The position numbers were made by a program, and so were the translations under genes. A stretch of DNA of 64,000 bases from Raillietiella orientalis (taxonomy: Eukaryota). This document shows, piece by piece, positions 10,332 through 64,000 of this stretch. The stretch is from contig JAYWIR010000013.1 of the NCBI GenBank assembly GCA_036172245.1, positions 2,046,001 to 2,110,000 of the forward strand, read 5' to 3'. Each line of letters starts with the position of its first letter. Position 1 is the first letter of the stretch. The notes under the pieces are model-generated. The model saw nothing but the letters and a program-made list of their open reading frames with translations. It did not search any database and was not told the origin of the DNA.

Positions 10332-10337
10332 AATAAA
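10332..10337 (+). promoter_or_regulatory. Candidate RIM polyadenylation signal
   Basis: AATAAA followed by a GT/T-rich tract (gtgttttattttctg). A second AATAAA lies at 10169-10174. Confidence 0.35.
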
Positions 10338-12165: not shown

Positions 12166-12167
12166 AA

Positions 12168-14150: not shown

Positions 14151-14159
14151 TCTAGGTGA

Positions 14160-14470: not shown

Positions 14471-14974
14471 TGGCTTCCCCAGAGTGTCAGAAGCGCGCTG
14501 CTTCCTTCGGGGAGCGCCCTTGAGAGAAATCGGGAAGCAGAAGAGGAGGAAAGAAGGGATGGTTCCCTTCCGCGTTCCCTCCAGAGAAAAAAACGAGGAG
14601 AGACCCCAACAAGCCGGGGTTCCTCCGAAGAGAATAAGGAAGAGATTCTTCCATTCGGGGTTCCCTTCGTAGACAACCAGGGAGAGGATCCCCTTAGGGG
14701 TTTCCTCCCCAGACGCAAGGGAGAAACGAATACTACGGAGCCCTTCCTAGATTCACAGAGTGGTCCCCTTCCGGGGTACCTCCAAGCTTGAACGGTGACA
14801 CGCATCCTCTGGTGGAGTGGAACGGTGTCAAAGAGCTTCGTGAGTCCTTCGTAAGGAAGCGAACAACTCTTCAGCACTCCTTGGGAACCAGGGGAAAAAA
14901 AGGAAAATGCGTGAAAGGAAGAAAAGTGGAAGGGAAACAGCAGGAAGATAAGAACCTGTACGGATCTCCATCAC

Positions 14975-16365: not shown

Positions 16366-18324
16366 CACCCTAGACCAACAGCAACCCATAAGGTCGCTAC
16401 TGGCCTTTATTTTTAAATAAGAAAAGAAAAAAGAGAGAGACAGAAACGGAAAACGGGTCGGTCAAAGAGCGCCCGCTGCTGCAACCGACACCTAACCACA
16501 AACTTTCGGGGATGCGGCAGTTACGAGTCCTGGAAGGGAGAGCCCCTCCCTGAGACGCAAGAAGTCGACTTATCCACTTGGCCGTTGCGAAGCACCGACG
16601 ACAGAAGGGAAGTAGATTCGGCTCCGCTTGCCTGGAGTTGCTTCTCGGGAACGCACCGGAGGGAGCGAAGGTTGAGAGCAAAACTCGACAAAAGGAACGC
16701 AAAGATCCTGCAAGTGTTCACAAAGGTGATCAGCACCGGAAGGAATCGCGTTGTTTCAACAGCACGAGGTTTATCCCTCGCGCAGCTCGTGGGGCTCGCC
16801 GGAGGAGTCACGTGTGGTTACACACGTGACCTCTCCGAGGTCGCTGCGGCGCGTTCGTTGAACCGGTAGTGCGAGGCCTACCCGCAGAGACTGGTGGATC
16901 TGCGACGAGCTCACGAAGACGCAATAGCGCTCGAGCCGAGACGTCCCTTTCGGACTGTCTCCTCCTCCGAAAATCGAAAAGGACACTTCCTCTCACCTGC
17001 CGATGGTCAGGCGCCTCTCCAAAAGTGTTCCTTCCCTTCCCCAGTCTGCGTGCTCTCTCCTAAGGGAAGGCTTTCCTCCGTGGGATCGTACGGATATCTC
17101 CCAGGACAGGAAGAGCAGTGGATGGATGACCTTTGATGCAAGATAAATATTTAGAAGCCATCGATCGTTTATTGTTTGCCAGCCCAAGGTACCCAATAAT
17201 GCCGGAAACATGCGCGTTTTTTTTTGGGGGGGGAAGGGGGGGAGTTGCGTTTGAAAGACCTTGGCGACCACGAAGCAGTGCCCCCCGCTCATTAGCAACC
17301 TGCGTTTCTGCCACGAAACCCAGATTAATGTTTCGGAAGCAGACGCCTCCCGATGACTGAATTCACGCTGTTTTCCATTGGTCCCGCTCGGAGGACGGTT
17401 CCTCCAGCGGAGCCGAATTTACCAATCGCTCCACTCTTCGTCGGAGGTGCGGAAAAAGAAAATGCAAGAAGAAAGGCAGGGACGAATTCGAACGGCATGG
17501 ATGGAATCTTTTCGGAATGGGAATCAGAGGAGCGGATGCTGATCGATTAAAGAACCGCTTCCAGCTTTTCGGCTTATATGGTATGAACCACTCGAACGGA
17601 ACCGGACTTATGAGAGCATCGCATGTTGCTGCTATTCTTGAAGCGTGCTAGGCGTTTCTCCTAAAGAAATCCGACAGCTTCTTGGCTCACCGCGCGTTTC
17701 ATCCCTGTCCACAGTCCGGAAACGCCTGGTTCGACGTTGTACGACTTTGAAGAATCGTATCGTTGCGAAGTGTTGCCGGATTTCTTCGGATGGCCGAGTG
17801 AACAGTAACCACGGTTAAATCTCTCGATCGGGACACTTCTTTAGAGCACCGGTTTGAATTTCCTCGTGGGAAGATTTCCTGATCGTTGCCTTTGAGGCGT
17901 ACGATGTGTACAAAAGGAAATCATCCAGCGAATCTCTTGAGGGAGGTGCGATGCCGAAGCCACATGGTTCGTAACGCTGCTCAAGACCTTAGCCTTGAGA
18001 AGCGGAACGCTTCCTTTTTCGAGGTCCGTTGAGAAGAGGCAGGTTGCTTGCGAGTACGCGAGATGTGCGCGGTTCAGGTTTCCTCTTCGGTGCCATTGAA
18101 ATGGTTGTGCTGTTCCACCATCCACACCCAGGAACCCCAAGAAATAACAGCAAATGTGCTGGACAAAGGCCCACTCAGTAGATTACATAGAGAGCATTCG
18201 CGTGGACCAGCACCTTGCATCACAAATGTTGCATTTGCGGCAACCGTTTTGGAGGCGCGCTTCAAGAAAACGCGGACACGCGGCTCGTTAGCAGTGCTCT
18301 CTGTTGACCTGTCGACTGCCACCC

Positions 18325-19160
18325 AGGCTGCTCCGGGGCGTTTGTTTCATATATAAAATAAAATAAACATTTACAATCTGTGTGTTTGGACTGGTAGTTC
18401 AACCCCTTCCTTTTCAGATCCGACCTGCCCCCGAGTTACCGGTTCGCAGATCGGTGAGGTCCGCGTCGGCAGCGGAGGGAAATAGGGTCAAATAAAAAGA
18501 AAGGGAAAAAAAAATAAAAATAAGTAAACAAATATGGAGGTGGGGAGGGGCGGCAAGGGATCACATCCTGCGAGGGACGGTCCTCTGCATCCTCTGCAGG
18601 ATACAGGCAAGGTGTTGCTGGATGATGCTTTCCAGGTGGGGACATCTCGTTGCCATCCTCATGAATCGGACGGCAAAGTGGATGTGGCATCCCTGTCGCT
18701 CCGTCCTGCTCTTGCGTCGCTCCAGGCAGCGTAGGCAGCAGAGGGTTGCTAGCGAGGCTGCCGACCGAAGGGCGGCGCGTACGAGGAGGGGTCGCGAAGC
18801 GTCCCTGGAGTTGCTGATCGACGGTTCCTAGCGTTTCCAGAGGGCTCAGAGGGCAGCACAATCCACAAGCAGGTAGCGGAGGGATTCACGTTCCCTCCAC
18901 CTGACACAGTTCGGGTCCACACACCCCCATGTTCGGTGGTGCCGGCGGGCGTTGTACGGGAGGACCCAATGCAGCAGCTCAGACTGTTGACCCGTCGAGG
19001 AGCTTCTCCTTGCCTTACTCGGTTTCCCCCCTGAGAGCAGCTTTGCCTTGTTCGGTCTGGGCTAAATTTGGACCGCCGACTTCGTCTGCATCTTGGCATC
19101 ACGTGCAACACTTTCCCTAAGAGATCCCTGCTCCGACGCTACTCACCATCCTCAGCGAGG
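18325..19160 (-). mobile_element. L1/Tx1-clade LINE 3' fragment, copy 5 (subfamily A)
   Basis: Minus strand CVDPNCVRWRERESLRYLLVDCAAL*ALWKR matches the copy 1 knuckle; 18411-18816 is the near-exact reverse complement of 13676-14081. Confidence 0.85.
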
Positions 19161-36194: not shown

Positions 36195-38757
36195 CTATAT
36201 GGTCATCCACTAATTCAACAAATTCCCTTAAATAATTAGATGAATTAGTAACTGATCGATCGTACACATATGTGCCAAATTTTTGACTAATTCAACAAAT
36301 ACCTTTAGTGAATTTTTTTAATTAGTGGATGATATATTGTAAGATGAGGGAAAAGAGTTCTCTGATTTTAAAATAATGTTTATGGTTCATTGTTGGAGAT
36401 TGCTCCTTTAACACTTTTGTGCCTACTATTAATCATATTGTTCATCTTATGCAATGCGAAATTTACTTATTTTGGACAATATTAGAGGTACTCAATTAGA
36501 ATCTTTGCACTGCAAGGTTGGCACCTATTTCAAGGTTCAAACAAAGCAGTTTATATTTGTATTTGTTTATAGATGTGAATCTTTAGCCTAGCTTACAAAA
36601 GTTAAATATAATAATTTCTTGTGAAGAATGAAGTAACAGATTATTTTCTTGTAAAAATGCACTGCAAGTACCTAGTGGTTCAGATTTCCACAAAATTGTA
36701 TGCATTGTTTGGCATTCATTAATTTAGTTTTTCACACATAAATAAAAGGCAAAATCACCATAGCGTGTAGTTAGCTTGAGTTTTTTCTGAACAGTTAATT
36801 ACTTCATAATTAATCTGTATTTAGTATTGCTATATCAGGTCATTTTTAATTTCAAACTAGTTTTGTAACTATTGTGGTCTTGACGTTTTTAAAATTTTTA
36901 TACTAGATTTCTCCATTAGTCAGGATATTCACAATTTGTCCTTACCCATAAAAATATGATTTTTTACAAACATATCAGTATTTTTTTACACATAATTTCG
37001 AAATGATTTGACATATTGAAAGGAAGCTTTTTTTATATGTTTCTCTTTTGATTCTAGAAGTATAAACTTCTAAAAATATAAATTTTTGTTGCCTTGAGGA
37101 AGAAGAGTTATGAGAATGTAATGGGAAATACGTCCTATTTTTTCTTTATAAATATTTATTTTAGAATTTGCAAATTATGTCTTGAGCAGATTCTTCTAAA
37201 CTAGCAATGGAAATTTGGTTGATTTGTCAAATAGGAGGTTTTTTCTCACCTTTGAAATACCGTTTTTGCAGACTGTGGCATTATTTTGTGATTGATGTGT
37301 TCTGGCTGAATTCAGCTCAATCACTACAAATGCATATTACTCTTCGAATTTTTCTTATTTTTATTTTCTTCGTGCTTTGAAAAAGTGCAGTTTAATAGAG
37401 GCATTATAAAAAGCAAGAAAATGCTTCTGCAAGTAATAGATTTGCTGAATGTTGAAATTGTTTATTTTTTGTAGTAGCATGATGACAAAACCTCGTGATT
37501 TTGCCACACTAATTAGGAATCGATTTGGAAGTGCTGATAATATTAGCAATTTGAAAAGTAAGACCACACCTATAGCAATACTACTGGAGAAGTATAATCT
37601 TTTAGGCTGTGTTTCAGAAGACAATGCAGAGTTGAGAGGTGAAAATTATTGTGGAAGTTACACTTTTCCTGGAACAATTTCACAAGTTCATCAAAAGGAG
37701 CTGGATAACAAGGAATTAAATCATTCAGATGAACCTTCAGAGTGCAGTTCCAGTATGACAAGTGGATCAGCTGGTGGTTTAGCAATGAATACACTTGCAT
37801 CAGTCAACTCACCACGCAATTTGGTTGGTGTAAGTATTTGGTTCTATTGTTGTTATAACAATTTAGAACTACTAGCTCTGTTAAATTTAAGTTGAGTCCA
37901 TGCTTTACGGGCTTCTTAATATGAAACAGATACGCAAAGTTGGTAGTTCTCTTCACAAACATGGAGTTAATAATCATGTGAAAACTAGCTCAGAACAGTT
38001 GTCACCAAATGCTGTAATTGCAACCTCCACATTCCAGCTTGGTTCACATAGCCTTGAAACTATTTTTCATGAATTGCAAGATATTCGTGATGAAATCGAG
38101 CATATCCAACAAGAAAGGAAAAAAATGCAAAGACGTTGTCAAATGGATAATGAAACTATTAACCAAGGTATACAAGAGGAACACTTTCGAGTAGAACGTT
38201 TGGAAGAGCAAGTCAATGACCTTATTGAGCTTCATCAGAATGAAATGGAAAATCTGAAAACAAGCATTAATGATATGGAAGAAAAAGTTCTCTATCAGAA
38301 TGAGGAACGTGTGCGTGACATTTGGGAAATGTTAGATGCTTGTCATACAAAGGTATGCTGAATGCATACACAGTATTAAATGTAACGACTTTTTGCCAGA
38401 TTTCTCAATTAGAACATCAGCAGCAGCAACATCAGCAGTTGGTTACTTTGGAAGGCATTCAAAATTCGAATGCAAGAGCTGTTGTTGTTAAGTTAATCAA
38501 TATTTTGTTGACCATCCTGCAAGTGATTCTTCTGTTACTAGCAACAATTATAGGAATCATTATGCCATTCTTTCGAACAAGGTATTATTCAACTGACCTA
38601 TTTCCATGGGTTCATCTTTTTATTCAGGATACGCATTCTCATCACTATGGTTATGATTGCTATATCGGTGTTTGTATATCATAACAAAGAAGAAGCATTG
38701 GATTTATGCCATATTATGTACTTATGGGTATTGCGCAAATTCTTTTCTTCCAACTGA
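35366..38757 (+). CDS. TMCC: Transmembrane and coiled-coil domain protein (TMCC/TEX28 family; Drosophila Dementin-like)
   Basis: join(35366..35627,35694..35916,35976..36020,37475..37557,37606..37829,37930..38352,38400..38581,38628..38757); DNVNEYL..FEKK, KPRDFATLIRNRFGSADNI, ERLEEQVNDLIELHQNEMENLK..MEEKV.YQ..ERVRDI, two C-terminal hydrophobic helices. The ATG follows an acceptor, so upstream exons may exist. Confidence 0.92.
36099..36197. repeat. Compound (TG)n/(TA)n/(TATG)n microsatellite in a TMCC intron
   Basis: Directly visible alternating purine-pyrimidine tract. Confidence 0.95.
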
Positions 38758-39109
38758 GTGTTTACCTGCTGACCAGCATATGCAGTTGTAAACATTGTTT
38801 GCATGGGATATTTTTTTCTACATTGATCGACCTTGCAACATCAGTAAACTTGTTTTATAAACATTGATGTGCTTGTAATAAAATTCAAGAAGACTATTTA
38901 AATTTGATAACGTTTTTTCAACCCCTTTTTTTTGTAAACATAAGGATCGAGGTGGCTTATCGTTGAGTGTTACTGTCTAAATTTTATTGCGGTTTTGTTT
39001 ACGTTTTGCTTATAATGTGATTGCTCTGAGGGATCGCAGTGTGTATTCTATAACGAACAATGAAGTGGTAATCCATTTGGTTTTAGCCATGTCGTGAGAG
39101 TCGTAAGAA

Positions 39110-39197
39110 TGTCGCGGGAATTATCACGGAATTCGAACACGGGCTTCAGTTGCGTTTTGGAAACAGGAGTACAATATCAGCCGTACCATTGAGACCA
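39110..39197 (-). mobile_element. Possible tRNA-derived SINE head
   Basis: Minus strand ggtctcaatggtacggctg (A-box-like) ... gtgttcgaattcc (B-box-like). It does not fold as a clean tRNA. Confidence 0.35.
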
Positions 39198-39293
39198 AAT
39201 ATGTGGAGACGGAAGTTTTGCAAGTACGGTGGATTCACGGTGCAGATTATTACATGCGACTCGCAGAAAGTGTCAGTAAATGGTACATGAAAC

Positions 39294-39455
39294 AGCAATA
39301 ATGATCAAACTGTTGAAATAGTCACATTTAATTTCCCCTCTAAATACTTTTGCAAGCGTTATCTCAAACTGCTCTTTTAGAGTAAAGTTGTTTATTAGCT
39401 CATCGACCCTCGACAACCCAAAATGGTGTATCCATATTCCATCGTTGATTTCTAT
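39294..39455 (-). pseudogene. Bacterial (Wolbachia-like) large NAD-glutamate dehydrogenase gene fragment
   Basis: 54 open codons IEINDGIWIHHFGLSRVDELINNFTLKEQFEITLAKVFRGEIKCDYFNSLIIIA, matching the recalled F..AL..V..G.IE.D.FN.L.L.AG motif of large bacterial NAD-GDH and especially Wolbachia versions. Not database-verified. Confidence 0.7.
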
Positions 39456-39551
39456 TATTATAATAAAACTTTTATAGCTCAGCGAATCCATTAAGTGGCA
39501 ATACAAAATATTATCTCTTTCATCATGATATTGGTTTTCATGATGTATGAA

Positions 39552-39635
39552 TTATCTGTAGCAATTGCCGATATGGCAACTGACCTGTATTCAGTTTCAC
39601 TACCGAGCATTGCCCATTATTTTGAAGTAGAAGGC
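39552..39635 (+). pseudogene. Bacterial (Wolbachia-like) Bcr/CflA MFS transporter N-terminal fragment
   Basis: LSVAIADMATDLYSVSLPSIAHYFEVEG matches the Bcr/CflA TM1 motif (D.Y.P.LP.I...F), in the form I recall from Wolbachia. Not database-verified. Confidence 0.7.
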
Positions 39636-42600
39636 CATGGCATCGGATAAGTGATGAGGGATGTCGATGAAAATTACGTATAAATGACTGATTCGTTTTA
39701 ATTATACAAACCAGTATATGAAGTGTATAATGCTGAACATGATAAAAAAAAAAAGCATAACAGAGAATGAATTGGTTATAACTGCATTATAATTCGCAAC
39801 AAAATGGTTAACATGCAGTCCAACATCAGTTCCTCGTTGTAGTTTTTACCAATGACTTCAGTGGGCCTCGTGTGCAACGTCGTGCAAGAAGAGTTTTAAA
39901 AAACTAATGAGTTACTTCGAAAATAAAATGCAAACACTCTTCGCATAGTAGATCCTTAAAACAAAATCGTTAGAAAATCGAAGGAGACAAAACAGAACAA
40001 AAACAAATAATAGGATATGCATCAGATGATAGGATTCATGTATACCTACTACAGACGAGTACCTACATAATTGAGGGAATGTTGAGAAAATTGAACATGG
40101 ACGAGAAATGTGAATCAACAAAAGTAACAGAAAAAATGGCATAACACAGAATGATCAAAAGTATGATTGTTACTTCAGTAACTCTAAAGTTATTGAATCC
40201 TGAAGTATGATTATGAATGTTTGTCTGTTGGCATTACTGCAATAAGTTTCATACGTGTCTTTGCCTGGCACATCCAAAAGATTGTCCAAATACGCGAAGG
40301 TGCAAAGTCCTCAAAGTCTTCAGAGTGCCAAAAGAAAAGCCATTTTCATTAGATGTGAAAGCAGAGGCAGCAATTTAGAATTTAATTAAGGCCTCCTTAA
40401 ATTAAATTCTAGTTCTTTGGTACCTAGTCAAAACGCTTGTTATCGCGTTTATATACGTACTAAACTCTTATATAATTGTTACTGAATTAATCCTTGAAGT
40501 GTTTTATGATGAAAACATACTCCAAACGCAAATAGTAAGATTTTTTGTAAGAATGAACACAGACTTGACGTTAACAGTGAAAATCATCTAATGGGTATTT
40601 CAATGCAAATTCACATTCGGATCATCAGTGGTACTTTGGGAAAGGGGGGGGGGGAATTGGATATCAATACAGAGAGTGAATTTCAAGAGAAGTATTACGA
40701 AGTGTTTGGTTTTCCAGTGTTTATTCAGAAATTCAGAAAATTTATGCCTGGACTATAGTCCAGGCAGAAACCATAGTAGGCGAAACTCTGCAAACGTCGC
40801 CAAAGAAGGAATGGGAACGTATCAAGGGTAAAAAAGTAGACAGGGTGAATAAATGCTTCTTGAATAAATACTGATAAAAAAAAATCCCATGCGAAGTATC
40901 TTTTTTTCTATTCCAATATTTATAATGTGAAGTGAGAACAATATGAATAAAAGTACGATTCCGCCTAAAATCTATAAAAGCTCAAGCTTTCATATAGATT
41001 GTACTATGGATTGAAAATCAGATATTTTCCACTATTTTAAGAATCCATTTATTTCATGCCAATTAATCCTAAAGAAAGGAAACATTCTTCACTAAATGAT
41101 AATCTCAATCATCATTTTGTAGCCATTTGTTTAGCAATACAGATATTATTAAGATCTTAAAGTTATCAAAAAACAAATTCAGGGTATGAGAATCGAAAGT
41201 TTCCATATTTTTTTCACACACATAAGTACGTATAAAATAGCAAACTAATTGGAATATGACTAGGTTAAAACAATGCTGAAGAATCACCGAAAACTTATTT
41301 GAGCCATTTTAGCAGTTCCTCTGCGATCAGGCTTTCAAAGAACCAAGTGATTTGTGAGTCTCTATAGATAGTGTGTGGCAATGAGGAAGTATAAGCGAAG
41401 GTGATATTGCAAATACTCTTTACAAAAGAATTCAGAGGAGATACAACCAGTTGTATCTGTAAATTGTATTTTCGGTTAGGGCGTATGAATAAATTTTCTA
41501 AGAAGGACGCAGAACGAAGGGATCTTCGGCTGCAACAATAGGATGAAAAAACAAAAATCGTGTCGAAGATACTGTGGAAATTATTCTTCAGACAACAAAC
41601 GACTCTATCCCTATATTTTTATTCTGCTTAGGAATTCGTGTGAGTGTTAAGATCATCAGAGGGCTTCTTAAGCGCCACAAAAGTAGCTATAATTTAGGAA
41701 GCTGTTTAAAAAAGTCGTTTATCTTCAATTCAATAAAGATATGTAAATCTGCTAAAAATGGGAAGCCAAATCTGCTGATAAGAAGTGTATAAGATAAGCT
41801 TTATGTTGAAAATAGCAAATAACACGGTTGTGTATTCGCTTTATTTTGACAAAAAATGTGCAAAAATTGATGCTATTTTGTAAAAGGTATATTTTGAACG
41901 AACCATTTTGATTACGGTTTGGTTGTTTTAAAATGTTAAAATGATTGGAATTCTACTCTTGTTAAGAGGAGTATTGCAAAAGCGTACCAATTTAAGTGTA
42001 ATCATGTAAATCAACTAGAAATATCTTTTCAAGATCTAGACAATGGTTTAAAAAAAGGTATTCAGGTTTTTACAGTTTTGTACACTGATTTGAATTTTTT
42101 CTACCAAAAACCTTCAATGCTTCTGTAAATGTATGTGATCTTGGTTGAAACCAAACGAATAGAATTTGGGTCTAATGATCTACAGCATTAACTTGTATGG
42201 CGGACTGTAAAATGAAATAAGGACAATTATTTCAAGAAAACTGAATAATGTAAAAACGATTCAAGCGTGGTTTCTAGGATTTCCCTGAAGAGCTAAACGA
42301 AGAAATTTGATAGAATTTTGCCTTTGAAAAGTGCTTGTTCTTTAATTTGCAAGCAATGAGCGCGATTGGCATAATAGACTTAGGTCGCTAGGTCGCGCTT
42401 AATTTTGTTGTGCATGGTTAAGTAAATTGAGATTAATTGTATGAAAATTCAGTATTTCTTTTGACCACAGAAATCGTTGGCTACTGGGTATTGATTAGTT
42501 TAAGTTAGGATCTATTTTAGAAGTAATGTGTTATTTTTCATTTAAAGTTAGAAAAGTGGTAACTTGACGATTTTGCTCCATTTTAAATAGTCTTCGTTGT

Positions 42601-42832: not shown

Positions 42833-45800
42833 GATAAAAATGAGTTTTCATTCAAAGTACTAGTGGTGGGTGAGCTGGGTACTGGGAAAACCAGTTTTAT
42901 TAAAAGGTATGTTCATCAGCAGTTTTCTGAATATTATAAAGCAACAATTGGTGTGGATTTTGCAACAAAAGTAATTACATGGAATTCCAATACTGTTATC
43001 AAGTTACAGTTTTGGGATATTGCTGGTGAGATGACATTTCCTTTTTTGAAAGTAAAGTGCCATCAGGTCAGGAAAGATTTGGCAACATGACCAGAGTGTT
43101 TTATAAGGAAGCCAAAGGAGCTTTTATTGTGTGCGATGTAACCAGAGTTCAAACATTTCATTCAATCCTTAATTGGAAGATTGATCTTGATGAAAAAGTT
43201 CGGCTTCCAAATGGAGCACCTATCCCATGTGTAATTCTCGCTAATAAGGTATAATTTGCAAAGCTTTATTTCTTGTAGCATTATAAAACATAGTGTGCAT
43301 GTTGGATCCAAAAGAATTTTAGGTACTGAGAGATTCATGTCATCAGTTCATCTTAAATGTCTTTAAACTATTAGGTTGATTTTTTTTCAAATATGTAATT
43401 TTTCTTTTGCTCCTGGCAGCAGTATCTTAATAATGTTATAATAATGCAAAAATGGGTTAATCAATGCTGTAATTACTGATATGGATTTCATCTTTCCGAA
43501 ATTATGAAGTTGTGTTTTATCAGATTTTCATTAAAGTCGCATCTGAGTTTAAAATCTACATTTGAATAATGTGTTTTATTGTTTCATATTTAAAACCTTT
43601 TTTGTGAATGCGCATACAAACTAACCTAATTTGAATGCCTTTTTGTATTGTATGTGTTTTAAGTATTCATAATTGTTTTCCTATTGGGCTTTTTTTTCTT
43701 TCGATTTCCTGGAGTTCAGCTCCTCAAACTTCTATAGGATGATATACACTTAGGGTTTCTCATCTTTCGTACCCTTCATTTGTCTGCAGAACCCATTTTA
43801 ACAAACTAACATTCATTTGATAGACTTTATTGGCCTATTTCAATCTGATTTCTTCTTTTTCTTAGTTTTTACCACTCTTTGCCAAGACTAGCAACATTCT
43901 AAGTCCTTATTGTGTTCTGCTCCATGTTCTTTAGCATTACTTCACAAGCATTTTCCCAGATATATTGTTGAACGTGATATTTTTTGTTGGCTGCACTTAT
44001 AAGTTTGAACAAGTTTTCTGTGACTACCATTCAAATGTGAATTAATGTTTTGTAACATAATAGTTTGATAACTGTTTAAGTTAATTTTTGTTATTGATTC
44101 TTTTTTGGAGCATTTGATTGAAAGATGCATTGAAATCGGAGGGTTGTTCAGAATATAAGTTTACAAGATCAGTTGGTGCATTATGCAAGCACAGCTGTTG
44201 ACATGTTGCTGTCTTGCTACTTTCCACAACCCATGTGAAACAAGCTCATGAGAAACATTAGTTTGCTCAAATTTATAGTGTATATCTCTGATAGCAGCAG
44301 TATATTCTACATGTTTCTTCTCTTTTCTTTTTTTTATTAATTTAAAAATATGTGCATTAGTCCAATCATTGGTAATGCAACACAATGCTGTGCAAGACCT
44401 TTAGTGTGTTTCTTCTCTGAGCTGTGCTTTTATGCTCATTTTGGATTCACGGTCCAGTAAATAGCATTCACTGGACTTCGAATTCGATTGATATACACTA
44501 TCAATCACAGATGATCATCTGACAGCAATTCCAAGCAAAGTTTTGGCAGCTTTTTGTTCAAGTTTAGCAAGAATCACTCTGTCATTTTGGTATTCTTGTG
44601 ACTACAACACGGGTGCAAACATCATTACCTTGCTGTTCTCTGTTGTGCTTTTTTCTTCCCAATTTTGTTTCAACAACTTCTAGAATGATACCATCTCCTC
44701 CAGTAACTTCTTGTTCCTCATCTAGGTTATTTCCAAGAAACCTGTGAAACTGTTCATGCCCAGTTGATAGCATCTTTGTGGAATGGCTGATTAAGCTGAT
44801 CACTCAAGAGACAGAAAGATCCAGTTACAAATCTAAAAGATGTAGGATTTCGCAGCATTTACAGATGCTATCAAAGAAGGTGAATTTTCTTTTCCTAAGC
44901 TCTTTACAGCCTGTCACTGGGTATTGGAAGGTGAAAATTTCAAATCAGTGCTGCATCTGTTGCTTGTATTTGGAAAAAACTTTGTATAGTACAACTTTGT
45001 AAGATGTATACAGAGCAGAGACTTTCTGCATGTGACTTATGGAACTTCATTTCATAAACTGTGGGAAGAGAATGTGCAAATGAAAAAATCCAACCCAATA
45101 GTTTTGTGAGGCATGCTTAGCAGCACTACAATCTAGGTCAACTATGCCTGTCAAGATCTATATTTTAAAGATGGCTGTTCCTGTAAACATATGATTCCTA
45201 CATAAATTGCAAGCTGCAATTTGCTTTTTAAACATGAAAAATATTTCCACTTCACAGAAGATGAACACCAGCACGTTGAAATTTGTGGAATTATTTTGTT
45301 TGGCAAATGTGTGAAAGTAGCCAGAGTTTCAAAAAGGAAGGCAATCAACAAACTGAACTCAGTTGCAAGCCAAGGATCTTTCAGTTTACTTGCAATCAAA
45401 GCCTTGTTCCATGATGTATATGTTAGAATTCATTAGATTATATGGAAGAACACAAACTGTCGAACTGTTTTGTATTGTCTATCTCAGAATAAATTCAGTT
45501 TTTAAAAACATTCAGTAAACTTACTGCATGAACAACCAATGTATGTTAATGCTTGGCCATTTACATTGAAATAATAAATATGATGAGAATGTACTGCAGT
45601 GTGTAAATACAGCCAACAATAATTTGTCAATTTTTTTTTTATGGAATTCGATTCTTTAAGAAATAAGATGAATTTTTGTTAATGTGTGCATTTTAAATAA
45701 GTGTACATGAGAATGTCTATTCCATTTTTCTTATAGTGTGATCAGAGCAATAAAGAAGTCATTGATAATGCTATTGTAGATCAAATTTCTAGTAGTCAAA

Positions 45801-50078: not shown

Positions 50079-53000
50079 ATGTTGCGTACCAAAGAAGATG
50101 TTGATAGACATATGGACTCATTACAAAGAACAGTGAAAACCGATATTGAGGTAGGACTTTTCAGTTTTGAAAGAACGGCAATAACTTAAGTTTTATGATT
50201 CCGGGTTTTCTCCTGATGCCAAGAAAAATTCCTAAATAATTCAATATGTACCGAATATGCATAACGTTTTGCATCAAATTATATTTGGTTTTTATCTCAG
50301 AAAATGTATATTTGTATATCATTTTTGTTATGGTTACTGTCATATCTAAGAGTTGCATTTGCAAGTTATAGCCGGTTTACCTCATGGAACATACAAGTTC
50401 CACGTTGTGCGATGTCATTTGATCTGTGCAGTATGCTATTTGTATCTCACTATTTTTTTTTTATAGCACTTAACTTTTATTGTGTATTTTTAGTTCAATT
50501 TAAAGGAGTATTACAATAAATGTTAAAATAAGGATATGACTTTTTTTGTAAATCATCAATGTCAGTAATCTATTTCAGAAGAAGATTCGAGGTTTATATA
50601 TTGCTCGTTTATATTTTCAAGTCAAGGAATTTGAATTAGCTCAACAATATGTTCTGGATTATTTGTCAGTGAAGAGCAATGTGTCTGAGGCATATGTGCT
50701 GCTTGGGGACATATATGTAGAACTGAAAGCATATAATGAGGCGCTAAAAGAGTATGCACGGGCCTATGACTGTGAATCCAATCTTGTTTGTAACAAAAAA
50801 GTCATTCTCAAAGGTAGATTGATTGGTCATTTTTAGAATATTATGATTTTTGTACTTTCTATCATTGAATAATTAAATTTATCAAAAGAATATTGAAGAG
50901 TCAAGATATTGCTTTTCAAGAATACAATATCCAATTCTTTGTAATTGATTATTTTAGTTGATCAATTGTAATTGTTCATCTTTGAAATCGTGTTGCTCTA
51001 GAATTTATACAATTTTTGGGGGGTAATTTTTTACTAATTCTTACACTTTTGGGGGAAATATCTTTTATAAGGTATTATTATTCACGTCGTCGCTTTTAAT
51101 TTTAGTGTGCGAACTTCTTGCAAAACCAGAAATTGATCAGTGTCATATAGAGTTTTGGATGGAGCTGTGTAAAAATTTTTATCCCAATCATAAAGCAGTA
51201 CTGAATTTGACAGAAAGCCTCTTGAGAAAAAATACTACAGCTGATAATATGGAATTGGAAAATGTATTAGTTCGTAAGTCATTTGTCTTTCCTGCATGTG
51301 TTTCTTATGTTGAAGATTTTTTTGTGGAGTGACCAATTATTTGCTTATTTGAATTGTTAAATCTAGTGAAATAATGATTCTGTGAAAACATTGTTTATTC
51401 AACCTCGGTTTGCAATAAAAGTGGGACAAACTCGTGTGTTTCAAAAAATACAGTGAGGCATTCTGTTTTTATTTTAAAAATACAGTTGGAATTCTGGGCA
51501 ATGAAATATGATTGCATGTGGATCTTTAAGATTGAATTTTTTCATTTGATCAAAACTTGGATTATTTGTAGAGTTGCAGCCCTTTATTTTTAATTAATGT
51601 TTCTTTTATAAACCTAACAAGTAATAATAATTAGTTTACAATTAAATTCTTTCTTATGAATTAACATAGTATCTCTTGTGTTAACTTTTAACTCGACTTT
51701 CATTAATATCAAAATATGACTAATTAGATTTTGTTAGGAATGTTGTTAATTTTGGTATACATGCTTCCTGTCCAGAGGAATATTATGACTTGCACGAGAA
51801 ACAGTTTTATTTAACAGATATCCATTGCTTTGTTGTTTTTAGTAACTGATTTAAAGTAAAAAATTTGAATAATGATAAGGAGTTTCCAAAGTGTAATGAC
51901 AATGCCTCCAAAGGGCTATGTAAACAGTTCAAGTGAAAATACTGAATTTAGCATGATAGAGAAGAGTCCAGTATGAGAGAGAAGGAACAGTTGATGTATT
52001 TTTTGAAATGTGATTCTGAGGAGCCACCTATCCAAGCCAGAAAAGCTGTATAAGAACTGACTGAAGTGGCAGAGGGACAAGGAGGGTTACTTAGCAACAT
52101 AGCAATTGAAGCATCTCTTGGTAGTAACAAGACCAGTTTTGTTCAGAGCGAATTTCATTAGAAATCATGTGGAAGCAACCAGAATAGTGAGGATTGAAAC
52201 TAAAACATGTACATTTGAGAATAGTACATATTAAATTAAGTATAATCTGGAACTTGAGTTTTCAGTGGAACACATGTGAATGAAATGTATCTCAAACATG
52301 GAAGGTCAAACAAAAGAGTTGTTTTGCACACCTATATTACATGCAGTAGTCAAGAATGTATTCATGAAGACTCATCTTTTACCGGATTTAATACCGAATT
52401 TTTTTTCCATTCGTTGCTGCTCAATTTTTTGTGTAAATTGTTTTTATTTTTAGTGTTTTTAAAATTTTTTTAAATTCGGTGTTTATTTATTATGCAATGT
52501 TTTCCCAGAAATTGTTCACCAAAGGGTCACAAATCATGCCATTAAATCGATTCAGGAGCAAACATTGCAAAGGGGGTGATGTAAAGTTTCATGAGAAATA
52601 ATGAGGATGTTTTCATTATAATAGGGATTTTTATAGTGGTCATTAAGTGTTATAGCACTTTATGGTGATGAATAGGGATGATTGTAAACTTTTACACGGT
52701 AAGTCACTTACAATGCCATCATTCTAGAAAATAAAGTGATGACAAATAACAGTACAATTCCAGCATTTTGCTTATAAAAGTCCAATGTATGAATGAGTAA
52801 ATTTAGTGTGTAGAAAGCAACAATTTATAGTAATTACTTGTACTTTGTAGTGATAAGTACTTGTGGCCTTTATTACCTTTAATAATGAATCTGTTTTAAC
52901 ATGAATGCAAAAAAAAAGTTGGCAAAAATATAGACAAGCATTGGTTTGGTAAAGAAAATAAAGTACACAGCTAGAGTGAAGTGCTAGCGTTTTATCCCAC

Positions 53001-56000
53001 ATTGGATTCATCAAGACTTGGCAATCATTTTCATACTGAAGTGTAACATAAAAGTAAAGCAGACCTCTGAGTACAGGTGTGAAACAAAATAGGATTTTTG
53101 ATATAATTTTGTGTGTTTGGGATATTGATAAGTTCTTTTGATAATATCACTCATGGTCTTTACAATATGAATTTGAAGTTGTGATGGTAGGAGTAGAAGC
53201 TTGTAAAGATTTGGAATTGATAGCTTTATTTTTGAAAGGAAATAAACTCTCAACTTTTCAAATGATGGATGTAGTAGATTGAAATTCATAGGTTTTATGT
53301 TGTTGAGAAATATTAATCAATAGTCAAGTATAAGTGTGATTTGCTCTTTCCATGTAGTCTTTTATGTGTTAATAGAACTGTAATTTTGTTGATAGGAATA
53401 AAAATATAGTTCAGTGTTCTGTAATTGTATAATCTTTTCAACATTATTAATATTACAAATTGAAATCCCAGTGGTGAATCATACAGTATAATTAAATTCA
53501 TATTTGGCACTTAAATGGATATGTGATTTGGTTAAATATTATGTGAAACTTACAGTGTTAACATAAGATACCAGTAATCAAATATTGGCAACAGGGAAAT
53601 TTGAAAAATGCATCTTGTCTTGGTATTTAAAAGTAGTCTGTTGAATATATTCTTTCTTATGTGAAGCTTACTTAGAATACAAGAGACAGAGATGAGTATT
53701 ATTTGTTGATCCTAGTCACTGATTTCAAAAAAAGGACTCAACCTGCCACAGCAGTATGACATTTTGGCACAACAGAAAACAAACACTGGTATGAGCCATT
53801 TACTTGATAATTAGGTTACTTAGATGTTTCGAATTTCTGTTCCCTAAAATTGCATTACCCTGTAAAGCTTTACTTGACTCATTTGAAGAAATACAAGAAA
53901 ACTTTATAACTTTCTGATTCAGTTGAACATGTGAAACCTTTACCATTTGAGTGGCGAAGTTGAAAGTGTGTGTAGTATTTAATCAAACATATAAATTTTT
54001 CTTTGCAGATTTCTTAGAAGTACGTGGTTATCGATAATTTATGCAGGGAGCAATAATTCAAATTATACTATTGAACCAAATAGATAATTTTGTAATAGAC
54101 AGTAGACAATTTTGTAACTTTCTGATTTGTTTCTATAAAGTTACTATATTTCAGGGCAGTTAGCCATGAATCCACAAAATGTACCACTTCGGGTGAAACT
54201 TCTTGAATTATATAAAGATTGTGGAAAGATTTCAGAAGCTTTCAATCATGCTTATGAAGTTGAATTAAGGACACCTTATACAGATAGTTTGGAATGGTAC
54301 TTGTGTTTATTGAAAATCACTGAAGTATGTACACTTTGAAAGTTGAGCATAGATTAAAATGCTTCATTTCAGAATTACTGTTTAACACCAAAGAGTTCTT
54401 TAATGTGGAAGTTTCAGTTCCTTTATTTGAATACATTGGATCACTTAACAGAACTTACTTTGGAACAGGCAAACAAGGCCTATCTCAAAGGGACTCAGAT
54501 TATACAAGAGGTTTCTCCATATTTGCAAAAGTATGAAATGATGAACTTATAAATAACTAGTGTAGTAGAATGTAAAATTTGCTCATGGGTAGTATCCTAG
54601 TCAAGGGTGTAAACAGCTGGGATTATTGCTTTTTAAGAAATCCATTAGCTGTTGTTTCCCTTTTGTATCAGTGTTTTATTTTTTCTTAGGATGAATGATT
54701 CACTAATTATGATGAGGGAAGCTGCAGATGCACCTGAGTTTTGGGAGGATATTATGGAACACTATTTATGCCAGTTATCGTATTATATGGCCATGGTTCT
54801 TATACAGAAAGTACAAAATGTAAGAATCTTCTGTTTGGAATGAATTAGAATTTAAACGGTGAAGCATAATATGATTTGTACCGATCTTAACTAAGCAAAG
54901 TCGTTATAAAAAGACTAAACGCTACGATAAAAAAATAGGAGCACCTGATTTCCATTAAGTGATTGGTTATATTCGATGATTAATTGGTCTGATTAAAAGG
55001 TTTGTGCAAATACAGTAATTCATGTTCGCTATTTTTTTTTTTTTTTTGCCTCATTTTACTCTTTTAGAAGTCAACTTTGCAGCTGTGATGGTTTATGATT
55101 TAGATAAAGATCCATATTTACTTGTGTAATTTGAACTGTAAGGTGTTGTTGATAGTATGAAATTTATCTAAGACTGCTTCAGTACATAACGAGCTATGTT
55201 AATTGTTAAATTTTTAATTTAATTATCAGTTTTTAATCATCCGTTTACAGTAACAGGGTATATTAACCGTTTTTATTACTAGATTCATTACTGTTTTGTC
55301 AAGTTCTAGTGTCAGTTCTAAATAATTACGAAATGATAACAATTGGAAACATCAAGTTTTACTTTCCTTTAAATTTGGTATCCATGAGCAGTGTATGCAA
55401 GTGGAATTTTATGCACTAAATTGCAAAATGATATTAGTAGATGTTTATTTGATAATTGACTAACCCTCGTAATTTTAGCAAACATTTATTTGGAAAGAAG
55501 TTCATGAAATTGTTTATGCTCTTCTTATGATAGCATGTTCACATGCAACATGCCAGCTCAAGAAAAATAACATATCAAATTCTGTAGCATTCACAGATTC
55601 CGAAAAAGTTCATGTGTCTCATCTGCTTCAGAGAGAAGCATGGAGGCTGTCTCACTGTGGTAAGCTAGGAGAATTATTCTTGTATTTTTTTAAAGAAATC
55701 AATGTTGATCTTAATGGTGGTTATGTTTTTCTATGATCTCCAGGACATATATTGTATAAAGTTGACATAAATCTAGATAAGATCTTCCAAAAATATGCGA
55801 ATGCTGAAGGCTTCAAAAAGATATTTGCTAAAGTGCTCTCTTGCAAACGACCAACATCTTTCTCCTTTTTTCGTGAGAAGCTTAGTACTTTTAAATTTCA
55901 TCATGGGTTACAATTTGAAGAAAACCATTTCTATGATGAAAGTATGCATGCATCTTTGAAGAGTTATTATAATGACTGTTTTCTCTTCAAATTCACTGCA

Positions 56001-59000
56001 GGTGCTTCACAACTGTGCAATGCTGATTTGCATAAGCTACTCTGGATTTGCATCCAATATGTTGAGAAGGAATCATTGCAAGATAATTTTGGAGGAAAAC
56101 CACAAAAGGATTATCCTGTCTGTTTGTTTGGAATTTCTCCTTTGTCATCTAGTTCTTCTGTATCCACTCTTATGGAGACATTTTGTCATCTTGATGTGGA
56201 AGCATTTTTGTTAGCCAGCGGTAAGTAATTATTATTGTACTTTTCTAATGATTTGCTTTCTATAGTGTATTCTTCTCAAAAGCTAGTGGAAAAGAAGAAC
56301 ATACAAATAATGTTGAATGATACCAACTTCTTGCTTCCTGCTTGTTGCATGCATTCTTTATGCAGCCCTGCTCAGCACAAATGGTGGAAAGCTGCATATG
56401 CATTGTGCAAGAATATAGCATCTGATAAGATTGCAGAGTATTATGGTATTTTGCAACATGGTTTGGAAATAATCCGTTGTACTAGAAAGTATGGATTACC
56501 AATAGACGTGCTTGTCAATTTGGGAAGAACGTTTTCAAGAAAGGTAACTTGAAAAATTCTGTATTTGTCTCACAAAGCATAAATTTCAGGCCTTTGGGTT
56601 AGATCTTATAATCGAAATTGATAGCAATGGTAGTGCTGTAAATGAGTATGCTTTGAGAGCAGAAGTGTATTGGAATGCATTTTTACAATCATATGAGAAA
56701 CTTCAACAGGGTGTTATTTTACCTTCATCATCAGATTCACTATTTGCAGATTCAGGGTATAACGGTGATAGCACTGATAGCTAACACAGTTTATTATGAT
56801 AGGAAAGTACCATCAGTTACAACTCTTTCTCAACCTGTAACAGAAGCAAAAATGTTTCTTGGAGTTCTGGAAATGAAAAGAAAAAATTTTGAAAAAGCAA
56901 TCAGTTTTTTTAAACAAGTTCAGGAGCCCTTAGGATCTTATTATGAAGCAATAGTGAGAATTTTAGTGTTCTTTATTCTATAGTTTTTTATTAATGAACT
57001 GATATTGGATTAATATTCGTATGTATGACATGATATTATTAATGTGTGTGCCAGATAATAAAAACATATATTATTTATTTTCTATGATTTTTAAAGTTTT
57101 CTTAAAAACAGGAATTCAAGTTTTATGTAGTGTATACTTCTTCCTGTAACGTTTTTAATGAGTGTGAGTGTCAGCTATAATTTACACTAATTGGATGCAT
57201 TTTATTTGATGATCAGAGTTGGGGAGATTGGCTGGGAGAAAATGATAACTAATCATATGTTAGCACTTACGTCTGAATCTTGTAACAGACTGCAATGCTC
57301 ATTCTTAGTACTGAAATGTTTGCTTACTTAAACTGATGTTCTAGATTTATAGGTATATGGCTTCAACACACACAAGTTCAAAGCAGGAATTACCTTTGTT
57401 GATATCTGCCAAAAATAGTGTTTACAAAACTTTAGACCTCATGGGCAATTCTGGCAACAATGTTTCAAGTCTCATTTTACCAGCATTGCTTCACGAGATC
57501 GAATCAAGAATTAGGAATATAGAAGAAACCACAGGCAAATAAATTCATACTATCTCCTTATGTGTTAAGCATTTAGCAGGAAAGTTTGTGTTGAAATTTT
57601 CAACTTTATTTGGCATTTTAGCTATAAATACGTTGTTTCCTGACTGCAGAGTCATTAATGATCCATTGTTACAGAGCACTCCTCGAAAATTGAGATCATG
57701 TTCAAATAAAATTCCGGTCTATGAGGTAAATGTCAAATTTTCCATGTCTTATGTCATTACAAAAGCATCTTCAAAGATACAACCAAGTCCAGAGAGGTTG
57801 GATGCACAGATGAAGTCCTTGCAGTTTACTCAGGACAGTACTTTGAAATCGATCCTTGATGTACATACAGCACTCCTGACAACAAATCGGGCCCTTGTCC
57901 AAGAACTTTGTCAGAATACTAATGTGATCGAAGCTATGAAAGTATGGTTATTTTAATTTTCGTGTATGCTATGTGTGTTGTTAGATGAAACTGGAAGAAG
58001 TGTGCAGAGAATTGGGTACTTTGAAAATCATATCGGAAAGTACCCTGAAGCAAGTGAGTGTTCAGAAATCAATTAAAAAGTTTAAGTGTGACTTTTGCAT
58101 TTTAGGATATGGCAGCAGATTCTCATGAGCATGACAGTGATATGAAGAAAGAGCATGAGTTTTACAATTACGTCTCAAGTGATGTTTCACCTAGACAGGC
58201 AGTGTCCAATAAACATGACAATCAGGAATTGCCTCTGCAGCCAAGAGGATACCAGTCAGATGTACTTTCCACCAATTTCTTATGCAGTCAGCAAGCTGAA
58301 CTTAATGCTTCTATGTGGTAAAACATGTATTTAAAAGATCGAGTTATCTATAATAATTTCAGCATCACAAGTGTTTCCACAGTTTCATCCCAAACTATCA
58401 GTAGTAGTGTGTATTCACACATTGCAAATGATTCAGAGGCTGAATTGGACAAAAACAAAAGCTCTTTATTTAAAGATGGTGTCCATGTGAGTTTGATAAG
58501 ACATTTGCTCCAAGGTTGCATTTTATTTTCCTTAGAATGCATGTGATTCGCCCAAGGATATGTTTGCAGCTCTGCAGAGACATCCTTCCTTGATTGAGCA
58601 ATCCAATAGTAAGGTTGCACTTAAGTACTCATCCCAATTCTGTAAAGAATACATCTATATTGTGGATGTCGAAAGTTTTTGTGCAGTAGCTTTTTAGTTT
58701 CGTTGTTTGTTGTTGAATTGCCACAAAATATAGGGCATTCACAGAAAAATATTAATCACAGCATCCTTGCTTCCAATGTTTTTAAAGATAGTTTTGAATT
58801 TGCGTTTTCTGCCATTTCAATTGATTGTTTTCAATTTTTATTGTAACTTCGTTCTTCAGTTTGTTAGTTTCTGTTTGTTTTGTCAGTAGATTAGTTTTCC
58901 AAGCCTATAATCGCAGTTGACAATAAATAGACATAGTTGAAGTTTATCTGTTTACAATTAGCCGAATGTTTGAAAAATATTGAAAGATTATCATGAGTAG

Positions 59001-62000
59001 CTAGATGCTATGGCTACTCTGTAGTATTACCAGTTTATCAGGACAAGTATTGCATAAGAAAAAACCTTGTCTTCCTTTTATGAGCATCAACGTGAAGATT
59101 CAATAGAGTTAGAATAATCCTAATGAGATTTATATTGATACTTTGAGAATTTATTTCTAAACTTTATATCTTCAATTTTTTTGTGTGATTGAAAAAAATT
59201 CTAACAAAATATAACAGTAAACCTGTTACTTTATGTTGACCTGAAATATGTACATCATGTTGTGATTAGTATGACTAGCCTTTACGAAACAATGTTGTTT
59301 ATTGCAATTTTCCGTATTTTTTCCCCACTTTATCTTTTTGAAGCCTATTACTAGATCTTTCAAACTGCTATTTGGTCTGATTGCAAGTTATACAATTTCT
59401 TGTAGTGGGTGTGATGAAGCACCCACTACAAGAAATTGTACCAAAATACACTATTGTGCTTTATACTCTATATGATATAAATCTGTTTTCCGAGAAAAAT
59501 AATACTGGTCAGCAACAGATTTGTATATTAAACATCTTGGAGCAAAATGTTTTATTCATTCAGTTAATCATGTTTCAAGTAAATACATTTTTGCTTTTCT
59601 TGTGGTTGGTTGAACGTGTCTAATTGTAATTCGAATGAATGCAACACCGTATTCAAATTTGAATAAATATTTGTATCCCACGTTTCATGTTGAGTGCTCT
59701 CTGTGCATTGATCATGCATCTCAGGTTCCTAGTTATGTTTGTTATTCACCTTTAGATGTCTCAACAGTTCCAACCTGGATGCAGATCTGTGATGGGTCAG
59801 TACATACAAATCGGGACATCTGTAAATTTGATCCTATTGAGCCAGCATTTCCAACACCGTACCTTTCAGCCAATTTGAGTGATGAGGTTAAAAAAGAATT
59901 TAAAAATTAAAGTGTCAGCTAAGTGAGTTCATTTTTAGGTGCTATTTGAAGAAAGCATTGAGCATTTGCTTAATTTCCAACAGCAGTGGAGGAAAGCTGG
60001 TGATGGGACTCTGAAAATCGTGAAAAGGGAAAATGACAAATATTTGCTACTTATTTGCGATAAAGTATAACACAAACTTTGATTATTTACTTATCAACAT
60101 GTATTCCTTAGCTATCTGCAGTTGTAAGTGAACACCAGATCACTGAGAGCATGCAGTTGAAACCAATTTATGGAAAAGAAAATACATTCACTTGGATCAC
60201 ACCAATGTCATTAGATCATACGAAGTTTCATTTGGCACCTGGTGTGCACTTTGCGAACATGGACGTTTCTAATGATTTCATTGCATGCTTTGCTAATGTG
60301 AAATCTTTAATCCAAGAAAAACTGAAACAATCATCAGTCCAAATTAGTAATGTGTCAAAGTCTCCACAAACTTCACAGCCAAGTGTATCTAAAGCAAGTT
60401 TTATATTTCATGCACCACCTATTTTACAACCACCAAAAATGAATGTGCCATCAGTTTCATTGCAAAACAATACCCCTGTGATTAAACAGAGTTCTTTTGC
60501 CAATTTTTCCTTTGCTGTGAGGACTACAGAGTCTACCTCATCTCCCAATAATGCATTTTACCCTTCCATATTTGGTTCAGGTAAAAAGGGGGGAAAAAAA
60601 TTGTATTTAAAGAAGCTGTCATGTTTGTGCTCTAGGTTTACTTTCATCAAAGCCTTCAGAAAATTTGCCTTCCATTCCTGTCACCAAAGCAGATAAAATA
60701 ACTGCTCAACCTTCAGCGCTACAATCCAATTCAGGTAGTAACAATAAATAAAAAAAAGTTGTCTGATTCTTTCAGTGTTTTGTTTTAGTTGATATTGGTA
60801 TATTCGGGTCCGAATCGTTACCATCGTTCTCTAATCTCGCAGCAAAGGCATCAGAGGCACCAGCATTCAAAAGCACTGATTTTAAGGTAGTTATGTGTGT
60901 TAAATTCTTTAAAGGAAGATGATAGTAACCTTAGTCACTTTATGATCATGTGATTTGCCATTTAAAGTTGTGGACACAGTGTCTTTTTGGATATTAGGGA
61001 TGGCAAGCTAGTAATGCTCCCATCTTTGCTTCTCACCATGAAAATAGCAAAGAGATTCAACACCATGACGATTTTGAACCAAATGTGGAATTCCAACCGA
61101 TAGTCCCCTTACCAGCACTAGTGCAAACAGTAACAGGTGTGCGCTGCATTATTTTATTTTTTTTAGCGTATTGAATGAGTTTGCATGTTTTGGTGGACAT
61201 TTGTTTTATTTCATTTGAGATCGATGCACTGGTTTATGAAACCAGTTTTGTGCAAACCTGTTGATCATCATTTATGCAATAACAACACATGGAGTAGGTG
61301 CAGTTGTCAGTTACAACCTTTTGAGGATTTTCTATGTGATTGAATGAAAAAATATGTTGCTTGATAATATGTTACTTGAAATGAAGTCCATGCTGGATTG
61401 AGTGTGTTACAAACAAATTCGAAAATTTTTTTCAAAGATGTTCTTTGAGAGGATATTTTTGTATTGCCTTAAATAATGGGTGAATACTAAAATTGTATTT
61501 TATTGAGATTTATGTTGGCAAGTTATGTGTTGAATATGGTATTTAACTAAAAAGGTTTTCGAACATTCAGTAACAAGCTGTAGGCCACAGTAGCAAAGCC
61601 AATGTGTAGTGAAGAAAGAAGTATTTTGTTTGATTACTGTTAAGAACTTAGTGTATTTTAACTTTCAGGCGAAGAAGATGAAGAAAAAGTTTACTCTCAG
61701 CGGGCAAAACTTTTTAGGTATGATGATACTACAAAACAGTGGAAAGAGAGAGGAATTGGTGATATTAAAATCATGAAAAGTAAGATCGATGGAAAGCCAC
61801 GTCTGATTATGAGGAGAGATTATGTATGTAAATTCACATGTCAATTGTATTTGTCATACGTAAAGTCAGGTTTTCAAAGTTTGTGCTAATCATTTCATCT
61901 TACCTGGAATGGAGCTACAGCCTTCATCTACCTCTGATAAGGCTTGGGTCTGGTTTGCTCAAGACTTTGCAGAAGAAAAACTGTGTGCTGAAAAATTTGC

Positions 62001-64000
62001 TGTCAGATTTAAAACTGTTGAACAGGTTTTATTGCCTTTATTAAATAACATCAATTATGAGTGCTTCATTATTTTATGTACTAATTTAATGCTGCATTCT
62101 AAAGGCTGAGGGTTTCAAAGAGATATTTGAAAAAGTGAGAGATGAGCAAGTGACCAAGGAAGTAAAGGTTTCTCAACTGGTTTCTGGGAGTTTTCAAAAC
62201 GCAGGGAAAGATAAAAATGCAATGCACAGTTCGCTCTCATGCAATGCAAATTCATCCTTAAGTGATGACTCAGATTCAGGAAAAACAAACTCCAAGGTAT
62301 TGGTCATATGATTAATGATACATTTTCCCCTGACATTCATTTGTGAAGAATGTTCCTGATTCAACATCAGTGACAGAAAAACCTGTGAAAGGTTTTGGTG
62401 ACCAGTTCAAAGCAGCAGCAGGTTCATGGTCGTGTCCCAGTTGTTATGTGGTCAATGGTCCAAGTGTGGCTATCTGTGAAGCATGTCAGGAACCAGCACC
62501 TGATATCCAGGTGTTTTAAAATACCATATTTTTTGATTAAAATACGTTATTGCGAATGATGTTAAATATGCTAATGAGACTAATTCGTTAATCTGTGTCA
62601 CCAGGCTAGCAGAGACCAGCATGGTAACAAAAATTCTGAAGGCAAGAGCGACACTGGGATCTTCAGTTTGCGAGGTGCAACTGGTTTTACTGTTCCAACC
62701 ATTTCCAATCAGACAAATTCTGAAGATACTCACAATCAAGGTGATCGTATTTACATGCAAAGTATTTATTGATTTATTTCAAACCTACTGCTTCAGTATT
62801 ATGTTTATAAAAATAGGAGTGCTTTTAAAAACGTGTAGATTGTGATTCATAATGCTCAGGTAGTGAATTTGTTTTTTCCTCCGTGAAAAAGCTCAAATCA
62901 CTTTAGTTTTTGTATACAAATTTTGTCAGATGCAAACTGTTTTTCCAGAAAAAATTTTGAAAACAAGTTTCCGTTCAAAATTCATTTAAAGTCTAGCCAG
63001 CTTTTTGAAATTTCAATGTTTCACAGTGAGATTTCAAGAGTTTCTTTTTGTTATCGCAGTGAATTTCTCAAGTTGTTCTTTTATGTTCCATACATGCCCT
63101 GTAAAGTTTTGATGTTTTAGCTCCAGTTGTAGAGAAATTTGTGTTTGGTTCCAAGGAAAAATTTCAATTCAGCTTCGATGTTTGTCCAGCTCCAAGTCTG
63201 AAGTCTCAGACTCCTGATCAGAAGGAGGATGTCTTCAATGAAGCTGCTGATGGTGGTGTTCGTTTCCAGGTTGGCTTATGTGCTGTTCACAAAAAATTTT
63301 AGTATAGCTGTATAGCCTGGTCTTCCCATTCCACAAAAATTAGATATTAAAACTGGTGAAGAGGGTGCAAGTGCAGTATTGTCTGGACGTGCTAAATTTT
63401 ATCGCTTTGACATGAATGAGTGGAAAGAAAAAGGTGTTGGAGATATGAAAAATTTGCGCCACAGCACCAATATCTGTCCGACTTCAAGTCTGAAGTCTCC
63501 ATCTCCTGATCAAAAGGAAGATGGCTACAATGAAGCTGCTGATGGTGTTCATTTCCAGGTTGGTTTGCATGCTCTTCACAAAAAATTATAGTATAGTTGT
63601 ATAGCCTGTTGTGCCCCTTCCACAAAAAGTAGATATCAGAACTGGTGAAGAGGATGAAAGTGTAGTATTCTGTGAACGTGCTAGACTTTATCGCTATGAC
63701 AACAAAGAATGGAAAGAAAAAGGTGTTGGAGATGTGAAAATTTTGTGCCACAATACCAACAAGAGGAAAAGGTTAAAGAATTATTGCTGATGGTTCTGTT
63801 CCAATTTCAGTCTTACAGAATAATCATGAGAAGAGACCAGGTGCTCAAAATGTGTCTAAATCACTATTTGACTCCAGATTTAAAATTCGGAAAAAAAGAT
63901 GAAAAATCATGGTTATGGGCTGCAGTAGATTTTTCCTCAGAAGAACTTAGTAATGAAACACTAGTGTTACGATTTAGAACGGCTGAGATGGCCCGTGCTT
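50079..64000 (+). CDS. RANBP2: E3 SUMO ligase RanBP2/Nup358 (3' end outside the window)
   Basis: About 32 exons, including 50079-50150 ([11 protein letters not shown]), 50579-50813 (TPR), 51106-51273, 54155-54324, 54373-54530, 54690-54819, 55479-55659, 55744-56220, 56266-56543, 56590-56756, 56803-56953, 57345-57534, 57622-57725, 57777-57941 (PSPERLDAQ). RanBD at 61669-62150 ([56 protein letters not shown]); RanBP2-type zinc finger at 62427-62489 ([21 protein letters not shown]); further RanBD at 63605-64000. Confidence 0.95.
63183..63760 (+). repeat. Intragenic tandem duplication (~290-bp unit: exon end, intron and RanBD N-terminal half) in RanBP2
   Basis: 63183-63470 and 63475-63759 align throughout, including the 46-nt introns (gttgg...aaaaatt.tagtatag.tgtatag). 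Confidence 0.92.

Follow-up and report, generated by a model that had tools for sequence, protein, structure and literature searches.

Sections available from work on nuclear Wolbachia transfers (nuwts) in Brugia malayi describe insertions that are mostly 100-200 bp long and enriched in intergenic DNA, with one region in which two neighbouring nuwts derive from separate parts of the Wolbachia genome, and suggest an RNA route for nematode nuwts (PMC3849323). Fossil Wolbachia insertions have also been described in Dictyocaulus viviparus (PMC4046930), and a survey of 22 filarial genomes reported 483-653 NUWT regions in Dirofilaria and Onchocerca (PMC12693587); according to the available parts of both accounts, such insertions document infections of the past. 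Neither 'mosaic' nor 'chimeric' appears in the available text of PMC12693587, and no junction-level study of mosaic nuwts was found in the literature searched, coverage of which was partial. Complex numts and nupts contain several fragments of a cytoplasmic genome, from varied places and in varied orientations, joined before or during integration, and the available portion of the plant study concerned gives a blunt joint or a microhomology of 1-7 bases as hallmarks of NHEJ (PMC6215612). These four sources are cited here and below from the parts of their text that were available.

Analysis of a 64-kb stretch of DNA (the window) revealed a 347-base Wolbachia-derived insert (Table 1) that, by every feature testable in the sequence, is a nuwt. 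The insert resembles the B. malayi nuwts in its small size, its intergenic setting (here probable) and its adjacent pieces of different origin, but differs from them in having an arthropod host and an F-like donor rather than wBm, and in being present as a single copy (PMC3849323). Like the fossils of D. viviparus and filarial worms, it is fragmented, decaying, F-related and located among host genes, whereas its arthropod host and relatively young age (~3% private change) set it apart; those studies were supported by reads or PCR, and the insert is known from an assembly alone (PMC4046930, PMC12693587). Non-adjacent fragments and a blunt joint are shared with complex numts and nupts, although the donor here is an endosymbiotic bacterium, not an organelle, and the mechanism is taken by analogy from plants (PMC6215612). 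Published work already covers nuwts as small as this, F-derived fossils and neighbouring nuwts that differ in origin (PMC3849323, PMC4046930, PMC12693587). The insert alone matters little, being small, dead, of a kind already well described and one of many nuwts in this genome; the preliminary description of the locus, made from the sequence alone, overrated its singularity, given at least 70 such regions.

Table 1. Coordinates of the insert, its parts and its host context (positions in the window)
Feature	Position	Strand	Details
Whole insert	39293-39639		Contig position 2085293-2085639 (G000:C13); two abutting Wolbachia pieces
Large NAD-specific glutamate dehydrogenase (NAD-GDH) internal fragment	39293..39455	-	163 bases, 54 codons, residues ~597-651
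Joint between the two Wolbachia pieces	39455..39456	.	Blunt, head-to-head; shared bases 0, filler 0
Bcr/CflA MFS transporter 5' fragment	39456..39639	+	39 upstream bases, GTG start 39495, 41/398 codons
Private in-frame insertion inside MFS piece	39533..39553	.	21 bases
3' exons, TMCC/dementin-like gene (left context)	37449..38757	+	PF10267; stop 38755-38757; AATAAA 38877
CpG-rich host flank	39001..39292	.	Single copy, not Wolbachia
Small GTPase spliced exons (right context)	42833..43250	+	TIGR00231

The preliminary description had proposed a Wolbachia-like insertion in the nuclear genome at 39273..39645, ~540 bp from the TMCC stop. Both the origin and the distance, which measured 535 bases, were borne out, and the limits were corrected to those in Table 1. 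The best Wolbachia strains showed 94-98% identity to the pieces, the insert region was matched in all 60 Wolbachia genomes searched, and the translated pieces led to Wolbachia/Rickettsiales loci in nine of 11 and seven of seven confirmed matches, respectively. Among the matches listed, protein identity of non-Wolbachia bacteria to the donor queries was at most 62%. A phage or plasmid origin was rejected, as only chance matches of 35-38 bases were obtained. The assembly (210 Mb, 491 contigs) places host nuclear sequence around the insert, with spliced TMCC exons on one side and spliced GTPase exons on the other, and the flanks had no match to Wolbachia. A 901-base query around the insert matched only itself in the assembly, indicating a single copy, and no target-site duplication or terminal repeats were found at the insert. 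The two pieces were the only matches between the window and the complete F-like genome G001, and further Wolbachia pieces in the window, among 26 genomes searched, were limited to one 39-base match. Searching Wolbachia genomes with the window gave four additional weak matches, two of them on an AT/GT microsatellite near 36100 that is also a sub-threshold Rfam match.

The fragments themselves matched no relevant model in a Pfam and NCBIfam scan, and genes were named through the donor proteins. The GDH donor ORF has 1592 codons and matched PF05088 and seven GDH domain models, and the MFS donor (398 aa) matched TIGR00710 at 227.9 bits (cut-off 200.9), confirming the earlier identification of a 54-codon minus-strand NAD-GDH fragment (163 bases of the donor ORF) and a plus-strand Bcr/CflA MFS fragment. 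Both pieces are truncated and without introns, as had been stated. The GDH piece, in which start and stop are both absent, carries six private substitutions and is identical at 153/163 bases to locus L002 and at 155/163 to the Penenirmus auritus strain, with an E value of 1e-66 against one Wolbachia genome. The MFS piece carries three private substitutions and, apart from the 21-base insertion, is identical to locus L014 at 159 of 163 bases.

That insertion, alternatively readable as 18 bases plus a 3-base duplication, was missing in all 28 aligned Wolbachia orthologues and was not found in any of the 60 Wolbachia genomes with up to two mismatches allowed; its sequence occurs once in the host genome. 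Support for local templated copying from sequence no more than 60 bases away was not significant (p=0.07-0.08). A weak, post hoc 7-base match links the insertion to the terminal bases of the left host flank, a match reached by 0.9-2% of control 21-mers (likewise post hoc). This match is suggestive only, hinting that the left host end supplied filler, in which case the 21 bases may be a copy of the host break end, which would be a polymerase-theta-like mark.

Examination of the joint changed the picture of how the pieces are arranged. They had been described as ~100 bp apart, with a possible third fragment in the intervening ~95 bp, but the gap between them is 0 and the supposed third fragment (39456-39553) is made up of the 39 bases preceding the MFS start codon, 38 bases from the beginning of the coding sequence and the 21-base insertion. 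Neither donor runs on into the other at the joint (eight GDH and five MFS donor loci inspected), and the joint is native to none of the Wolbachia because the GDH piece is mid-gene. The claim that the donor pieces were non-adjacent held: in the closest single-contig Wolbachia genomes their sites lie 176-299 kb apart, at 187 kb in G001, ~190 kb (189-190) in G015, 176 kb in G035 and 299 kb in G004. The insert has the blunt joint between non-adjacent donor pieces that characterizes complex end-joining insertions: two stretches that lie far apart on a supergroup-F-like Wolbachia chromosome meet here head to head.

Supergroup placement, one of the checks proposed in the preliminary description, grouped the insert in a clade with a bootstrap of 96 together with the strains of Mansonella ozzardi and P. 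auritus, which are listed as supergroup F in the available part of PMC12693587. Over 287 coding bases, identity was 90-96% to seven strains versus 71-86% to 18 others, values being slightly lowered by the ungapped alignment where a strain has an indel close to the MFS start. The tree excludes strains without one of the two loci, and its F labels for MAGs were inferred from the tree itself. The Meromenopon strain fell within the F clade on a long branch, and wStur was discordant (GDH 150/163, MFS 97/124). Judged by this tree of only 287 bases, the donor groups with supergroup F.

Changes since transfer were consistent with loss of constraint. Eight of the nine private substitutions are non-synonymous (N) and one is synonymous (S), compared to 13 N and 18 S among the seven living F-like strains (Fisher p=0.021), a test based on nine changes, some of which may be donor changes since the true donor is unsampled. 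The neutral expectation is that 78% of all possible changes are non-synonymous. Neither piece contains a stop or frameshift, which is unsurprising after nine changes. On these small numbers, the insert is decaying outside the bacterium, without purifying selection, and this post-transfer decay argues against a contaminant. With 54/1592 and 41/398 codons in place of complete ORFs and no sign of purifying selection, the insert is not a functional laterally transferred gene. Because its private divergence is ~3%, it is among the younger inserts in the genome.

A genome-wide scan, likewise proposed as a check, was run with ~60 kb of Wolbachia sequence (four queries) and gave 105 match rows, which fall in 70 host regions spread over 39 contigs, with a median match of 147 bases, a longest match of 1001 bases and identities of 66-96%. 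No match in the host's own genome exceeded 1001 bases with these four queries, and so no live-Wolbachia contig was seen. Nine regions were matched at least three times, chiefly through Wolbachia repeats. By rough extrapolation, Wolbachia-derived regions may total several hundred to ~1000. Thirty loci were retrieved, which, less seven duplicates and the insert locus, left 22 other loci, a sample biased to repeat-bearing, multi-piece inserts; ten had tight joints between non-collinear pieces, four were looser mosaics, two had pieces ~300 bases apart, one was collinear and five were single pieces. The 21 tight joints, counting that of the insert, included 10 with overlaps of 1-5 bases, three blunt joints and eight with gaps of 1-7 bases, where positions are BLAST edges against a non-donor genome.

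Several individual loci showed further features. L052 (G000:C36:448308-451618), L074 (C56:22001-25045), L056 (C35) and L075 (C31) are mosaics of 5-8 pieces from all round the donor chromosome, with up to 2.9 kb of Wolbachia DNA. In L050 (C6:35856-39289), L053 (C56:11913-15125) and L074, Wolbachia pieces are split by non-Wolbachia inserts of nearly equal length (757, 758 and 761 bases), perhaps through insertion of one host mobile element into nuwts. L051 (G000:C12:2940470-2941470) is a second GDH fragment, of 1 kb at 70% identity and from another part of the gene; it is much older and points to an earlier wave or another strain. Ten of 12 unique-copy joints (L052-L078) switch strand relative to G001, a non-donor genome (p=0.04), which may reflect chance or donor rearrangement and carries no weight here.

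We consider it highly probable that the insert is a functionless nuwt, the two pieces of which were ligated and then captured in break repair, and that it has been passively inherited. A Wolbachia-infected germ-line cell would have released shredded bacterial DNA, two pieces of which would have been ligated together and captured by end joining as filler at a chromosome double-strand break; the 21-base insertion would date from that repair event or later, and the patch would thereafter have been passively inherited. Joining during break repair is proposed because the internal joint is blunt and because of the genome-wide mosaic pattern, and the 39 untranslated upstream bases and the mid-gene, antisense GDH piece are in keeping with a functionless nuwt. 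The many-piece mosaics in this genome seem to fit DNA ligation better than an RNA route. The same capture process may have run hundreds of times in the lineage over a long period. Only tentatively do we extend this to the broader and rather doubtful proposal that the lineage has long and routinely used concatenated shredded Wolbachia DNA (pieces of 50-500 bases) as break-repair filler, at several hundred to ~1000 sites of which about half are mosaics.

Other routes to a mosaic in a real nuwt, namely a larger insertion cut down by deletions, a joint pre-existing in the donor or two insertions at one spot, appear unlikely. Because the pieces are collinear in G015, loss of 189 kb there would produce this joint too, but they are not collinear in G001 or G035, and a deletion route would have to cut precisely at three points to leave just two pieces of 163 bases. 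The two genes are only ~4-20 kb apart in other Wolbachia (G034, G011, G045 and G056), yet a joint formed in the donor would have destroyed both, though they are matched in most Wolbachia genomes searched. Collinear decayed inserts do occur in the genome (L063). Against these routes, inserts of 3-8 pieces from scattered sites are common, and private divergence is similar in both pieces (6 and 3 changes).

An assembly chimera, with reads from a live Wolbachia fused into the host contig, would require three false joints within 347 bases at a point 2.08 Mb inside a contig of >4.3 Mb, and one live strain cannot yield the 66-96% range of identity spanned by the genome-wide inserts. The non-synonymous excess and the private insertion also count against a chimera, which is very unlikely despite the fairly high identity to living strains (95.5% over 287 bases). 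We attach hardly any weight to co-option of the insert, either as the MFS frame, which opens with an ATG at 39525, stops at 39650 and encodes 41 hydrophobic residues, or through altered regulation of TMCC or the GTPase. The ATG-started 41-codon ORF amounts to a tenth of the transporter and shows no sign of splicing, and the in-frame length of the 21-base insertion, which would suit a retained frame, has a one in three chance of arising. A CpG-rich stretch does lie directly upstream, but the changes look neutral, the TMCC polyadenylation signal precedes the insert and the insert is single copy.

The insert records infection of this arthropod lineage by an F-like Wolbachia and can make a PCR or read screen falsely positive for Wolbachia. 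Of more value is the genome-level pattern of high insert density, wide age range and frequent tight mosaics, which could help to put dates on repeated infections and to distinguish end joining from deletion or RNA-mediated routes. If the filler reading is true, the genome would be a natural junction library for the entry of symbiont DNA into the germ line, and could document supergroup F in a group of hosts from which it is not known.

The insert is probably intergenic rather than within the TMCC 3' UTR, because the TMCC AATAAA precedes it. TMCC introns are GT-AG and short (47-49 bases), and those TMCC relatives that bear species names (six of the ten looked up) are crustaceans and chelicerates with ~45-50% identity, which places the host among the arthropods; best identity exon by exon was 57-73%, and by TMCC there is no close sequenced relative. 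Positions 39001-39300, adjoining the left end of the insert, have a GC content of 0.43 and a CpG o/e of 1.32, versus 0.1-0.7 in gene bodies, and are possibly a promoter-like stretch; no protein, Rfam or Wolbachia match was found for this stretch. That a host exon might be split by the insert (open frame 39107-39292, resuming after 39639) was unsupported, as a weak search gave no protein relatives and no Pfam match. From its motifs, we take the GTPase to be Rab32/38-like.

Across the window, GC drops sharply from ~55% (1-19000) to ~32% (27000-64000), marking a compositional domain boundary. The former part contains sparse exons with a C2 domain near 8660-8810, presumably RIM-like from their motifs, and the latter is gene-dense with short introns. 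Two inverted repeat pairs, 13662-14148/18346-18831 (489 bases, 95%) and 12167-13291/14982-16101 (1150 bases, 69%), are possibly transposon copies or terminal repeats. Exons at 50552-60696 include a weak RanBP1 domain match near 60112, and we assume this gene to be RanBP2/Nup358-like. Finally, a tandem duplication of ~290-310 bases with 82% identity lies at 63156-63759.
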